The notes under the pieces: generated by a model
What the model was told of the DNA's origin: nothing
Seen by the model: only the letters and a program-made list of their open reading frames with translations
The model's database searches: none
Shown here: positions 2,716 to 5,097 of the stretch, one piece after another
How the letters are laid out: every line of letters starts with the position of its first letter
Position numbering within the stretch: the stretch's first letter is position 1
From: a virus
Lineage: Duplodnaviria; Heunggongvirae; Uroviricota; Caudoviricetes
Direction: 5' to 3' (one strand)
Virus record (IMG/VR): IMGVR_UViG_2519899835_000008
Length of the DNA stretch: 39,548 nt
Position numbers and translations under genes: made by a program

Positions 2716-2901
2716 TCAGGGCTGGGTCGGGTCTTTTGGGAGCGGAGTTGCCTGCGCTGTTTTACTGAGTTTTTCAGCTGCTGCGTCCTCAATTTTGCGG
2801 CGAACATAATTTCTGATGGCCTTATAACCACCACTCACCAGATATAACGCACATACTGCCGTGCAGAAATACAATAAAATAAGCTGTAAAAATGTCATCA
2901 T
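2716..2901 (-). CDS. Hypothetical small single-pass membrane protein (~61 aa from the ATGATG start)
   Basis: Hydrophobic segment TFLQLILLYFCTAVCALYLVSGGY followed by a basic stretch; GGGAGGG directly upstream of the tandem ATG. Confidence 0.5.
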   Translation of the reverse strand: MMTFLQLILLYFCTAVCALYLVSGGYKAIRNYVRRKIEDAAAEKLSKTAQATPLPKDPTQP

Positions 2902-2913
2902 CCCTCCCAATTA

Positions 2914-2954
2914 TTGACATGGTGTTGACACCGGTAATATCTGTTAGGTAAAAA
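2914..2954 (+). promoter_or_regulatory. Candidate sigma70-like promoter (tandem TTGACA boxes)
   Basis: TTGACA at 2914-2919 and 2925-2930; candidate -10 elements TAATAT (2935-2940) and TAAAAA (2949-2954); imperfect palindrome GGTGTTGACACC. Confidence 0.3.
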
Positions 2955-2994
2955 GGTGCACTGCATTTTTTGCTTTGGATATAACGATCTTTTT

Positions 2995-3036
2995 GCCGCC
3001 GGTTTCTTGTTTTCCCTTACCGGCGGCATTTTTTTA
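2995..3036 (+). terminator. Rho-independent terminator, plus-strand specific
   Basis: Perfect 9-bp stem GCCGCCGGT / ACCGGCGGC with 15-nt loop, followed by ATTTTTTTA on the plus strand; the minus-strand reading has only an A-tract after the stem. Confidence 0.5.
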
Positions 3037-3042
3037 TCCTGC

Positions 3043-5097
3043 TTACGCGTTATTCACTTCCACCACGATACTGTCAATCAGTACCGGGTAAGTCGCATTT
3101 TTAGTGATATCGGTCACGCGCAACTTGTCTGCCGTAAACGTGCCGACCGAAGACTGCGACAGCATGAATGGTGTCCCGTCCTTACCATCAATGACCGGCG
3201 TCACCTCAATACTGTTGTTACCGGCAAAACGGAAGCCCAGCGTATGCCATTCGTTATTAAATGCGCCGAATGACCCCAACTTCGTGTTCTGCGCCGTGTT
3301 TCCTTTGTGATACATCACGTTAAGGTCTGTGGCATCGCTCTGTACGTAGAACGATGCCAGCAGGTTATGACCGGCATTTCCTTCCAGAGTAACCCCTTGC
3401 GGCAGGGCAGAAACCGGCCAGTACAGCGCCAGTGCGTACTGATTAGCCGTAAGCGCGCCATCGAGTTTAAAACGACAACTGACAAGACCACCTTTACCCA
3501 GCAGGTCCGCACCATTACCAGCATCATGCTCAAGGTACCAGGGGGCTCTTCCTGTTTCCTTGGTCAGTTTCATTGCCTTACCCCCGCTGGCTCCGGCATC
3601 ATCCACGATTTGAGCCTTGCCACCTCCGGCAGCCCAACCCTGTGGTGTCAACCGTCCTTCAGACTCAGATGCCCGGTAAGCAAATAGCGTACTCATCGTC
3701 GTGGTGTCTGCGGGTGGCGTGGACGGTTTTGATGGTGTATCAGGTGACGGCTTCTCATCCGGTGGTGTCACGGTCTGCCCGCGCATCAGTTCAGCCGTGC
3801 GCCCTGCATGGAGCATAATAGCTGAGGCCAGACGGTCTGAAATGACGCCCCTGCGTGCCCATGAGCTGAAATGGCTGTCACGCTGTGTCGAAACCAAACT
3901 GCCCTGGGTTCGGGATGCTGCACCGTAATACCCGACAGCCACAATATCCGGGTCTTCCGCCGGAGCATTCGTTGGCGTGCTCTGTCCATTCTCATCCGTC
4001 AGGAACGGTACAAAGAAAATTTTCTGTGCTTCCTTGCCTTTGTAGCCACCGTATACTGCCTCATATTTATCGGTGCCAGCGTTTTTCCAGTAATACGTGG
4101 TATCACCGCAAATCCACGGCACCGTGGTGGCATTTCCACTCACGCACTGCGCAGCAAGCGGAGCCAGGTCAGTTCTGAACTGCTGAACCATGGCCGTGAA
4201 TAAACTATTATGCTGCTGGCTTCCTGAGGCAAGGTCTGCCTCTCCCTGCATCCAGACCACAGCCAGAAGTTTGTTTTTCGGGTTTTTCGCCAGCGCGACT
4301 TTGGTGCGGCTTACCAGGTCCTGATACAGAGGTTTACCGGCCCCCCAGCGTGAAGAATCAGCGGAAGCACCGCTGGCCTCACTGAATGAGCCGTCGGCTC
4401 CAGTGGTGAATGCTGACCCGCCACGACAACAGGGCACCAGAAGTATCCCGGCATTCTGTGGGATATAGGGAAGCAGTTTTTTGGCAATATGCAACCCCTG
4501 ACCGACAGTCCCGTACTGGCCTTTTGCCAGATCAGCTTTCGGGTGGTTTATCCCGCTCATATCCTGAACATCATGCAGGCAGTGGTCTGCCGGAATGATG
4601 TCGTTGTATGTACACGACGTACCGTTGGGCGTTACCGTACTGCGGCGTGCCAGTTGCTTAATGCGTGGGTCCGGGCGGTCAAACGAATCCGGTAACGGCA
4701 GCCCCTCGCCGTAGGCCATGCCATTTGACTGACCCGCGAGAATGACAACAAAGTAATATTCCGGCTCTGAACTGCTGCCATTCGTGCTACCGGAAGGCCC
4801 GGCGTTATCCGGTGCATTCCAGTCGGAGGGCGTGAGCGTTCCGGCCACGTCAGATGTGATTGGAATGATGCCAGTCACGCCTGAACTGGTGATTTCTGCA
4901 CTGGGATTACCGGATACCGGCATTACCCATAATGGCTCTTTCGTGCTGAAGCGGATCACGCAGTCTGCGAAGGTGATCCCCCCTTTATTACCCGAAGGGC
5001 GGAAAGGGCTTTCAATAAATGCCACCGTGCCACCGGCAACCTTGACTGAAAACTCTCCGGGCATGGCGGAGAGCATTTTCCACTTGGAGTCTGACAT
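3043..5097 (-). CDS. Carbohydrate O-acetylesterase (SASA/DUF303, SGNH-like) with Pro/Thr-rich linker and lectin-like C-terminal domain; possible tailspike or receptor-modifying protein
   Basis: 684-aa ORF with motifs VVILAGQSNGMAYG and VVWMQGEADL matching the GQSN and WxQGE(S/A)D signatures of sialate-O-acetylesterase-type esterases; linker TPPDEKPSPDTPSKPSTPPADTTT; no signal peptide. Confidence 0.6.
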   Translation of the reverse strand: MSDSKWKMLSAMPGEFSVKVAGGTVAFIESPFRPSGNKGGITFADCVIRFSTKEPLWVMPVSGNPSAEITSSGVTGIIPITSDVAGTLTPSDWNAPDNAGPSGSTNGSSSEPEYYFVVILAGQSNGMAYGEGLPLPDSFDRPDPRIKQLARRSTVTPNGTSCTYNDIIPADHCLHDVQDMSGINHPKADLAKGQYGTVGQGLHIAKKLLPYIPQNAGILLVPCCRGGSAFTTGADGSFSEASGASADSSRWGAGKPLYQDLVSRTKVALAKNPKNKLLAVVWMQGEADLASGSQQHNSLFTAMVQQFRTDLAPLAAQCVSGNATTVPWICGDTTYYWKNAGTDKYEAVYGGYKGKEAQKIFFVPFLTDENGQSTPTNAPAEDPDIVAVGYYGAASRTQGSLVSTQRDSHFSSWARRGVISDRLASAIMLHAGRTAELMRGQTVTPPDEKPSPDTPSKPSTPPADTTTMSTLFAYRASESEGRLTPQGWAAGGGKAQIVDDAGASGGKAMKLTKETGRAPWYLEHDAGNGADLLGKGGLVSCRFKLDGALTANQYALALYWPVSALPQGVTLEGNAGHNLLASFYVQSDATDLNVMYHKGNTAQNTKLGSFGAFNNEWHTLGFRFAGNNSIEVTPVIDGKDGTPFMLSQSSVGTFTADKLRVTDITKNATYPVLIDSIVVEVNNA

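Follow-up and report, generated by a model that had tools for sequence, protein, structure and literature searches.

A Predicted EcOnc33-Type Small RNA Antisense to the Esterase-DUF1378 Interval of a Mu-Like Prophage

Introduction

Phage lambda specifies OOP, an antisense RNA of ~77 nt that has its own promoter and intrinsic terminator, is convergent with the upstream gene, overlaps the 3′-terminal coding region of cII and acts on cII mRNA. In E. coli O157 Sakai, the small RNA EcOnc33 is encoded on the - strand of prophage Sp6, has a predicted terminator, was crosslinked to Hfq in 5/5 Hfq-CRAC datasets and appears on Northern blots as a discrete ~71-nt band (Tree et al. 2014, Mol Cell, Table S2, PMC4104026); its targets have been tabulated (Waters et al. 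2017, EMBO J, Table EV7). PasA and PasC of EPEC E2348/69 (EcOnc51/52/35 in Sakai) are Northern-validated, Hfq-dependent RNAs that lie antisense between esterase and lysis genes (PMC8550237 Table S6; bioRxiv 10.64898/2026.05.13.724894), and the 5′ end of PasA was mapped by RNA-seq (PMC8550237 Table S6). A further Sakai RNA, EcOnc37, lies in the Mu-like prophage Sp18. Our literature searches for EcOnc33, EcOnc37 and the seed sequence described below returned no main-text matches.

Here we analyzed a 39,548-nt stretch of Caudoviricetes DNA (IMG/VR record IMGVR_UViG_2519899835_000008, hereafter the window), for which an earlier note, made from the letters alone, had proposed an antisense RNA in a type I toxin-antitoxin-like arrangement with a small membrane-protein gene.

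Results

A Predicted Small RNA in the Esterase-DUF1378 Gap

The features of the region are the following (positions in the window):

2394-2419, - strand: intrinsic terminator closing the esterase-DUF1378-DUF826 unit (from a scan; 10-bp stem, then TATTTT)
2426-2680, - strand: DUF826 gene (PF05696), the last of the transplanted cassette
2716-2898, - strand: DUF1378 gene (PF07125, E = 9e-33), 60 aa with an N-terminal transmembrane helix
2914-2919, + strand: upstream duplicate TTGACA box, probably not functional; type-A relatives vary here
2925-2930, + strand: TTGACA serving as -35 box for the predicted sRNA, the downstream and functional member of the tandem pair
2949-2954, + strand: A-rich -10 element TAAAAA, after an 18-nt spacer
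2960-3036, + strand: predicted sRNA of the EcOnc33 type, ~76 nt (5′ end inferred; 3′ end in or past the T run)
2961-2980, + strand: single-stranded 5′ seed region CUGCAUUUUUUGCUUUGGAU, nearly invariant across type-A variants
2994-3035, + strand: Rho-independent terminator (stem 2994-3003/3019-3028, loop 3004-3018, T7 3029-3035)
3043-5097, - strand: SASA/DUF6645 carbohydrate esterase gene, NanS-p-like (Pfam SASA and DUF6645; RefSeq annotation), convergent with the sRNA

The gap between the esterase and DUF1378 genes does hold an antisense unit on the + strand, as the earlier note had claimed, and measures 144 nt (2899-3042) and not 140 bp. The neighboring gene likewise encodes a small single-pass membrane protein (hydropathy >1.9 across residues 1-24, conserved in relatives), with the correction that the product has 60 and not 61 aa, the conserved start lying at 2898 and the ATG at 2901 occurring only in this allele. 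DUF1378 matched only Pfam DUF1378 and PHROG 494 (unknown function), with no toxin or defence family among its matches and nothing in PADLOC or the PDB. A protein search placed it essentially within Escherichia, Shigella and Citrobacter, and a scan of one genome per species found no DUF1378. The gene adjoins the predicted sRNA as a neighbor; a partnership of the two is not demonstrated. The esterase-sRNA-DUF1378-DUF826 module is of lambdoid late-region origin and sits here within a Mu-like prophage, where a + strand pseudogene (1689-2187) lies upstream.

Tandem TTGACA boxes with a plausible -10 element were found on the + strand where they had been described, and the comparison with relatives whose gap carries the same RNA body (type A) separated the two boxes. 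The downstream box is invariant in 13/14 distinct type-A gaps, and in the 14th (strain ST865) an 11-nt deletion moves the remaining TTGACA box to the same 18-nt distance from the -10 element, whereas the upstream box is not conserved, reading TTGATA, TTGGCA, TTAATA or CGACA in type-A relatives. Gaps with other bodies carry TTGAC[A/T/G/C] at the position equivalent to 2925-2930, and the 18-nt spacing followed by an NA(A/G)AAA hexamer recurs in 27/27 distinct gaps and also in the PasA/PasC units, where the 5′ end of PasA falls 6 nt past the hexamer equivalent to our -10 element. The -10 hexamer is non-canonical, having A rather than the customary T as its sixth base (-7), and for this reason the 2925-2954 site was not listed by a consensus promoter scan of the window. 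The pattern TTGACN-N18-TA(A/G)AAA alone is expected by chance 0.025 times per strand in a first-order Markov simulation.

The hairpin at 2994-3035 is the strongest intrinsic terminator in the window, its stem pairing U/GCCGCCGGU (2994-3003) with ACCGGCGGC/A (3019-3028) around a conserved, C/U-rich loop whose core CTTGTTTTCCC is invariant in type A; the built-in terminator scan missed it because the 15-nt loop exceeds that scan's 8-nt limit. The earlier description of a strong terminator working on the + strand only held up, since the hairpin is followed by seven T on that strand, whereas in the minus-strand reading of 2994-3028 AAAAAG comes next. The T run ends 7 nt short of the esterase stop codon. 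The segment 2955-3037 folds at -25.6 kcal/mol (z = -4.1), a stability that 0/200 shuffles equaled, and when body types A, B, C and E are compared, both sides of the stem have changed in 4/9 pairs, giving a covariation score of 0.226 against 0.104 +/- 0.035 in shuffles (0/500 reach 0.226); this covariation supports the predicted terminator hairpin. When promoter and terminator were combined in one scan (TTGACN-N18-TA(A/G)AAA, then 60-140 nt on a hairpin of <= -12 kcal/mol plus >=6 T), a single site was returned in the window (2925/3029) and none in 80 first-order Markov strands.

The gap has no conserved + strand ORF. Two mechanical ORFs on this strand (2956-3273 and 2975-3091) cross the terminator and both frames are broken by indels in relatives, in agreement with the earlier statement that the gap holds no + strand protein gene. 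The gap is 86-89% identical to those of type-A relatives, compared with 67-72% identity at four-fold degenerate positions in the neighboring esterase codons, and the blocks that are invariant in type A are the -35 and -10 elements, the seed, the stem and the loop. At gathering thresholds Rfam gave no family match anywhere in the window. A permissive search brought up Esr41 (RF02676) at 22.2 bits (gathering 102; E = 0.14), an identity that we rejected because the score is far too low and the true Esr41 is located in SpLE1.

From these features we consider it probable that 2960-3036 encodes a prophage small RNA of ~76 nt and of the EcOnc33 type, Hfq-dependent and acting in trans through its 5′ seed. 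Transcription would begin from the -35 box at 2925-2930 and the A-rich -10 element at 2949-2954 and would end at the strong Rho-independent terminator that abuts the convergent esterase stop codon. The layout resembles that of an Hfq-dependent sRNA, with a single-stranded 5′ seed, a U-rich stretch, a GC-rich terminator hairpin and a U7 tail.

Comparison with EcOnc33, EcOnc37 and PasA/PasC

The closest known counterpart is EcOnc33. We placed it on the current Sakai record through offsets calibrated on Esr41 and AgvB together with read sequences, and its identity is confirmed by the sequences of CLASH reads. The predicted sRNA is identical to the Sp6 locus at 68/74 aligned nt (92%) and the whole gap at 121/140 (86%), and EcOnc33, like the window RNA, is antisense between SASA esterase and DUF1378 genes; the two also agree in promoter geometry, in the terminator stem and in the core of its loop. 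EcOnc33 CLASH reads start at CCTGCATG, which is equivalent to 2960-2961 in the window. The window allele differs in that it has no 5-nt loop insertion, has 2 extra nt before the stem, carries U in place of the Sp6 G as seventh seed base and lies in a Mu-like prophage, Sp6 being lambdoid. The O157 homologue has been shown to be expressed, to bind Hfq and to pair, in association with RNase E, with mRNAs from other loci. In RNase E-CLASH the 5′ end of EcOnc33 was found ligated to the translation start of arcA (5 reads, replicated, in both orientations, FDR 2.7e-4) and also to dps mRNA. By its sequence the predicted RNA is thus a close relative of EcOnc33 and hence an already known sort of regulator. 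This homology, together with an architecture kept in every related gap, upholds the earlier proposal of a short non-coding RNA on the + strand that is served by a promoter and a terminator of its own.

EcOnc37 of Sp18 shares with the window the Mu-like prophage type, the order invertase, esterase, sRNA, DUF1378, DUF826, com, mom, the promoter geometry and the terminator 3′ arm, which is then followed by ATTTTTTTAT; it differs in its RNA body, which is unrelated (type C) and about 95 nt long. The window gap is nearer to the lambdoid Sp6 version than to that of Sp18, which indicates module exchange. PasA and PasC resemble the window RNA in their size (~80 nt), their convergence with a sialate esterase gene before lysis genes, a TTGACA-N18-(C/G)A(G/A)AAA promoter and a terminator with a T run at the esterase stop codon, and the window RNA shows the positional hallmarks of these RNAs, namely the opposite strand, the esterase-lysis interval and a 3′ stem-loop with poly-U. 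Sequence membership in this group was rejected, because an nhmmer profile of 6 Pas-type units (from E2348/69 PP2 and PP5 and Sakai Sp4 and Sp12), searched with the filters disabled, found nothing at 2900-3050 and its best matches elsewhere had E > 2; pairwise alignment gave in common only the promoter, the T run and an initial ACTGC(C)A. The Pas units further differ in the C-terminal subtype of their esterase, in having no adjoining DUF1378 or DUF826 and in often occurring as two tandem units. PP4 of E2348/69, which carries PasD1 alone, says nothing on occupancy of the position, since there is no esterase gene there.

When esterase-DUF1378 gaps were collected more widely, the antisense unit was kept in 27/27 distinct gaps, with at least 6 unrelated types of RNA body, EcOnc37 included, and a convergent unit was present in 41/41 DUF1378 loci examined. 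Among esterase loci without DUF1378, which have the other esterase subtype, 65/75 carry one or two such units, alike in promoter geometry and in location. Three loci (L027-L029) have an esterase 99% identical to that of the window, yet a gap body of a different type. A gap of the esterase-DUF1378 type was found in 357/5,426 complete E. coli genomes.

Discussion

Possible Local Roles of the Antisense Unit

Three other readings of the gap were weighed against a trans-acting sRNA. We regard as very unlikely the one in which DUF1378 is a membrane toxin and the + strand RNA its antitoxin, acting on the mRNA leader by blocking translation or triggering cleavage. Its appeal comes from the general type I toxin shape of the conserved 60-aa product, in which a charged tail accompanies a single N-terminal transmembrane helix, from the presence of a unit at all 41 DUF1378 loci, and from an RNA that diverges from just upstream of DUF1378 and is a perfect complement to its mRNA. 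This geometry resembles that of tisB/istR-1 and zorO/orzO, which, like shoB/ohsC, combine the gene for a small single-pass membrane protein with a divergent, upstream-complementary RNA. However, the RNA starts at ~2960 and is transcribed away from DUF1378, so that the complementary stretch, 62-138 nt ahead of the start codon, overlaps neither the ribosome-binding site nor the ORF, and since consensus scanning showed no - strand promoter-like site at 2900-3300 this complement is intercistronic esterase-DUF1378-DUF826 RNA and not a dedicated leader. In contrast to the genes of those three type I pairs, DUF1378 has no promoter of its own that we could find, matches no toxin or defence family and is in every context an internal cistron of an esterase-DUF1378-DUF826(-holin) phage operon, always second after the esterase, and units of the same geometry occur at the 65 loci without DUF1378. 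For the - strand leader, folding gave an ensemble of low confidence in which the ribosome-binding site is not clearly sequestered. Interaction prediction, which had been suggested as a check, also spoke against the arrangement: seed pairing with the DUF1378 start region was no better than with shuffles, and the terminator loop, although predicted to pair with the DUF1378 ribosome-binding site at -11.2 kcal/mol (p about 0.02), stays constant while that site varies. The partners captured with the O157 homologue (arcA, dps) are mRNAs encoded elsewhere. The locus represents no novel class of system, and reading it as a toxin-antitoxin pair contributes nothing that is backed by evidence.

A mainly cis-acting unit without a toxin, in which convergent transcription and a perfect 76-bp duplex with the esterase-DUF1378 intercistronic RNA would damp or process read-through of the late or esterase transcript, appears to us doubtful as the principal role. 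By analogy with OOP, RNase III cleavage or polymerase collision could uncouple the esterase from the downstream membrane/lysis genes, although OOP overlaps the cII coding end and the window RNA stops 7 nt before the esterase stop codon. Action in cis and in trans need not be mutually exclusive, and the RNA may have some local antisense effect on the esterase-DUF1378 polycistronic mRNA. Promoter and terminator stay in place while the unrelated bodies are swapped, even next to the nearly identical esterases of L027-L029, and any body automatically complements the sense transcript, which fits a purely local role equally well. Only 15-50 bp separate the sRNA promoter from the start codon of DUF1378, so that polymerase bound there would be in the path of sense transcription, and RIL-seq partners of PasA include the 3′ end of its own neighboring esterase mRNA. 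Against this, the type-A seed and loop are conserved beyond the needs of mere complementarity, and the homologue is strongly Hfq-bound and forms its chimeras with mRNAs encoded elsewhere. That there is no RNA gene at all, the hairpin stopping stray antisense transcripts or stabilizing the 3′ end of esterase mRNA and the TTGACA boxes being chance, is barely credible. The non-canonical -10 element and the standard scan without a promoter here would fit it, as would the pseudogene at 1689-2187, which could feed antisense transcripts to the terminator. The TTGACN-N18-A-rich hexamer pattern nevertheless keeps a fixed distance from the terminator in all 27 gaps and in the PasA/PasC units, the promoter geometry is retained even in lambdoid contexts without an upstream + strand gene, the chance expectation is low (0.025 per strand, as above), and the homologue shows a discrete band and Hfq-CRAC peaks.

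A Possible Positional Superfamily

The positional view joins EcOnc33, EcOnc37 and PasA/PasC, which are separate in the literature. In its boldest form, which we advance only as a speculation with the odds against it, the site 3′ of NanS-p-type esterases would be a dedicated, selected slot for an antisense unit whose primary job is local, the bodies being secondarily recruited as Hfq-dependent trans regulators and the whole forming one positional superfamily. The unit of this slot would consist of a fixed -35 box, an 18-nt spacer, the unusual A-rich -10 element and a terminator abutting the esterase stop codon. In lysogens it would primarily gate esterase read-through into DUF1378, DUF826 and the holin gene, as a type I-antitoxin-like or OOP-like safeguard on the membrane/lysis cassette, and the interchangeable RNA bodies would later have been recruited as Hfq-dependent regulators of other genes. 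If this were true, EcOnc33, EcOnc37, PasA/PasC and at least 4 more body types would belong to one superfamily that BLAST-based surveys have split or missed. The gaps offer a clean case of modular phage sRNA evolution, with constant promoter and terminator, swapped bodies and recombination breakpoints at the esterase stop codon. The window sRNA has no RefSeq annotation and no Rfam family even though the gap is carried by 357 genomes, and this prophage regulator class is therefore invisible to standard annotation.

Possible Targets of the Predicted RNA

For the EcOnc33-type RNA that we favor, the most likely mechanism would be Hfq-assisted pairing of the 5′ seed with initiation or coding regions of host mRNAs. 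Duplex predictions with the whole RNA were uninformative, being dominated by long artificial interior loops, and were repeated with the seed and loop only. A duplex predicted between the seed and the translation start site of com (-24.8 kcal/mol) was rejected and is treated as chance, because 4 other sites in the window score equally. If the window allele acts like its O157 homologue, which contacts the arcA start and dps, a Mu-like prophage would be tuning host redox/stress regulators. With U at the seventh seed base the predicted arcA duplex has -14.7 kcal/mol, compared with -19.3 with the Sp6 G, and is only marginally better than shuffles (p about 0.04); this single seed substitution probably shifts the target preference relative to the Sp6 allele.

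The gap between the esterase and DUF1378 genes contains a candidate plus-strand promoter and terminator

The gap studied here is 144 nt long (window positions 2899-3042) and separates the first two of three consecutive minus-strand genes, for an esterase, DUF1378 and DUF826.

Features of the gap and its surroundings (window positions and strand)
1-576: truncated fimbrial usher gene, elfC-like
683-1574, minus: Mom and Com genes
1689-2187, plus: pair of ORFs of 99 and 68 aa, an incomplete pseudogene in RefSeq
2394-2419, minus: intrinsic terminator ending the esterase-DUF1378-DUF826 unit
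2426-2680, minus: DUF826 gene, 84 aa
2716-2898, minus: DUF1378 gene, 60 aa
2914-2919, plus: first TTGACA box
2925-2930, plus: second TTGACA box
2949-2954, plus: TAAAAA, exactly 18 nt past the second TTGACA
2994-3003/3019-3028, plus: hairpin stem with a 15-nt loop
3029-3035, plus: seven T
3043-5097, minus: SASA/DUF6645 carbohydrate esterase gene, 684 aa, stop codon at 3043-3045

The tandem TTGACA boxes and the -10 element reported in an earlier note are present on the plus strand, as is the terminator proposed there; it would act on that strand only, since the hairpin is followed on the minus strand by AAAAAG. The predicted RNA fold of 2955-3037 has an energy of -25.6 kcal/mol (z = -4.1), and none of 200 shuffled sequences was as stable. 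The built-in promoter and terminator scan of the window listed neither gap element because it requires a T at position 6 of the -10 and accepts loops no longer than 8 nt. A composite scan (TTGACN, 18 nt, TA(A/G)AAA, then 60-140 nt, a hairpin of -12 kcal/mol or lower and at least six T) returned a single site in the window, had no match on any of 80 simulated strands, and identified the gap hairpin as the window's strongest terminator.

The gap RNA corresponds to EcOnc33 of E. coli O157

Rfam yielded no family for the candidate RNA. The only match, a sub-threshold one to Esr41 at 2955-3037 (22 bits vs. 102, E = 0.14), was rejected, and the true Esr41 is located elsewhere, in SpLE1. A BLAST search of 5,426 complete E. 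coli genomes found relatives of the gap in 357, with an identity of 99% or more in 21 and of about 81% in 326 that are mostly O157:H7. The O157 copy lies in prophage Sp6 of strain Sakai, flanked by ECs_1527 (esterase) and ECs_1528 (DUF1378). An sRNA of Sp6, EcOnc33, has been reported on the minus strand; it has a predicted Rho-independent terminator, peaks in five of five Hfq-CRAC datasets and gives a Northern band of ∼71 nt (Tree et al., 2014; PMC4104026, Table S2). The coordinates of that study refer to an older Sakai record, and their offset to the current record was calibrated in two ways, from Rfam matches to Esr41 and AgvB (+137 to +146) and from the read sequences in Table EV7 of Waters et al. 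(2017; PMC5286369), which gave +141 for CCTGCATGTTTTGCTTTGGAT. After correction, the EcOnc33 peak coincided exactly with the predicted RNA body, from the -10 to the terminator, and the window RNA was identical to that of Sp6 at 68 of 74 aligned bases. Together with the unique composite promoter-terminator, this homology bears out the short non-coding plus-strand RNA of the earlier note, and judged by its sequence the window RNA is an allele of EcOnc33 and a genuine sRNA gene, one that lacks a RefSeq annotation and is absent from Rfam. EcOnc37 (Sakai prophage Sp18; also five of five datasets) maps with an offset of +127 to the same gap of that Mu-like prophage; its position corresponds to that of the window RNA, but its RNA body is unrelated.

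RNA bodies are exchanged within a conserved architecture

Gaps were compared among 33 viral contigs found via DUF1378 and eight loci found via more distant DUF1378 proteins, and at all loci collected the DUF1378 gene lies downstream of the esterase gene. An antisense unit was present in all 27 distinct gaps, consisting of TTGAC[N], an 18-nt spacer, an A-rich hexamer, a body of 70-105 nt, and a GC-rich hairpin with six to eight T beside the esterase stop codon. At least six unrelated body types can be distinguished: A (window and EcOnc33), B, C (EcOnc37), D, E and F (Citrobacter). In three IMG/VR loci (L027-L029) compared with window 2899-3700, the C-terminal half of the esterase is 99% identical to that of the window and the gap is of type B, which indicates that bodies have been swapped by recombination at the esterase stop codon; in these loci the breakpoint coincides with the stop codon and the terminator's 3′ arm. 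The terminator stems can be aligned across types A, B, C and E, with both sides changed in four of nine pairs and a covariation score of 0.226 vs. 0.104 ± 0.035 in shuffles (0/500 as high; slid controls lower). Identity to the window is 86-89% for type-A gaps and only 67-72% for four-fold degenerate positions in the neighbouring esterase codons. The blocks that never vary among type-A gaps are the second -35 and TAAAA, the seed CTGCAT..TTTTGCTT, the stem and, within the loop, the core CTTGTTTTCCC.

PasA and PasC, sRNAs of EPEC E2348/69, resemble the window RNA in antisense position and promoter-terminator design. Both lie on the opposite strand to, and just downstream of, sialate esterase genes (PMC8550237, Table S6), and are Northern-validated and Hfq-dependent, with EcOnc51 and EcOnc52 given as homologues (Pearl Mizrahi et al., 2021; PMC8550237); the esterase-PasA/C-holin arrangement has been described by Zhu, Shabalina and Storz (bioRxiv 10.64898/2026.05.13.724894). 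The E2348/69 and Sakai units consist of TTGACA, 18 nt, CAGAAA or GAAAAA, a body, and a terminator with T run at the esterase stop codon. In RNA-seq, PasA begins 6 nt past the hexamer, in support of the assigned promoter and of a window transcript starting near 2960-2961. A profile of six PasA/PasC-type units did not detect the window candidate, so the relation is positional and architectural, and sequence homology is not demonstrable. Among 75 viral loci with the PasA/PasC esterase subtype, 65 carry one or two units, a convergent unit is missing from eight, and an insertion sequence interrupts the other two; none carries DUF1378.

All unit types share a consensus -35, the 18-nt spacer and an A-rich -10 (TAAAAA, CAGAAA, GAAAAA or TAGAAA) that lacks the T usually found at -7. 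Two tandem units follow the esterase in E2348/69 PP2 (L002, 2767-3010, minus) and Sakai Sp12 (L055, 395-700, plus), one PasA-like and the other esterase-proximal and EcOnc51/52-like; the minor 236-nt form of PasA is read-through to the second terminator. In some esterase-holin gaps without a convergent unit (L114, L122, L124, L129), a hairpin and T run closely precede the holin gene on the sense strand, that of the late operon; this feature, also seen at L002 ∼3130-3165, may represent a terminator or another RNA's 3′ end.

Targets and possible roles of the RNA

The earlier note had proposed a type I toxin-antitoxin-like arrangement in which the RNA is complementary to the mRNA leader of a 61-aa single-pass membrane protein. 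DUF1378 is indeed a conserved protein with one N-terminal transmembrane helix, a shape that fits a type I toxin. Its length is 60 aa rather than 61 or 64 aa, since all relatives have ATAATG where the window has ATGATG (2896-2901), placing the conserved start at 2898. A toxin-antitoxin pair is not supported, however: the complement of the sRNA lies 62-138 nt upstream of the start codon, leaving the ribosome-binding site and ORF uncovered, and the predicted trans pairing with the start region, a check the note had suggested, is unremarkable. Moreover, the promoter scan of the window found no DUF1378-specific promoter, the gene invariably sits inside a phage operon as an internal cistron, loci free of DUF1378 carry equivalent units (65/75), and the protein matched no toxin or defence family. 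The main rival of the trans mechanism described below is that the RNA acts locally on the esterase-DUF1378 mRNA, as an antisense RNA or through transcription interference; this would be in keeping with a conserved architecture around swapped bodies and may coexist with a role in trans. That the position downstream of the esterase is kept for local gating of the membrane and lysis cassette seems to us rather unlikely.

Evidence for action in trans comes from RNase E-CLASH, in which the EcOnc33 5′ end was ligated to ECs5359 (five reads, replicated, both orientations; FDR 2.7e-4; PMC5286369). ECs_5359 is arcA, and the ligated fragment covers its ribosome-binding site and start codon. In another chimera, this EcOnc33 5′ segment is joined to ECs0890, which from its translation, LIDHLDTMAERAV, we take to be dps. 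The seed-only duplex with the arcA start region was predicted at -19.3 kcal/mol for the Sp6 allele (p ∼0.002 vs. shuffles) and -14.7 kcal/mol for the window allele (p ∼0.04), the weaker pairing resulting from a G-to-U change at the seventh seed base. By sequence, the window RNA has the layout that is standard for Hfq-dependent sRNAs, with a seed at its 5′ end, a U-rich stretch leading into a GC-rich terminator hairpin, and U7 as its tail. The seed would direct Hfq-dependent regulation of the mRNAs of other genes; such trans regulation is the best-supported mechanism, shown for the O157 allele, and we infer it for the window allele. Within the window, com is probably not a target: the sRNA 5′ region (2960-2995, plus) is predicted to pair with the com translation-start region (1561-1630, minus) at -24.8 kcal/mol (0/500 shuffles as good), probably by chance, since four other window sites score equally well.

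Origin of the locus

Several E. coli chromosomes, e.g., NCCP15648 and FORC_069, match the region at 100% identity. Window 1-1574 reaches the mom/com end of a Mu-like, Sakai Sp18-like prophage, and the truncated elfC-like usher beyond this end indicates insertion in the elf fimbrial operon. The gene order invertase, esterase, DUF1378, DUF826, com, mom is shared with Sp18. Elsewhere the esterase-DUF1378-DUF826 module belongs to the late/lysis region of lambdoid prophages, followed by holin and lysozyme genes, and the module here (esterase, sRNA, DUF1378, DUF826 and minus-strand terminator; 2394-5097) derives from a lambdoid late region. Deeper in the window (5183-7680) lie a gin-type invertase gene and genes for tail fibres. 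The ORF pair at 1689-2187 (plus), for which no family match was found, is a single 155-aa gene, ECs_4996, in Sp18. Here the lambdoid-type module is flanked by the invertase gene on one side and com/mom on the other, in a Mu-like phage, and the window gap resembles that of lambdoid Sp6 more closely than that of Mu-like Sp18.
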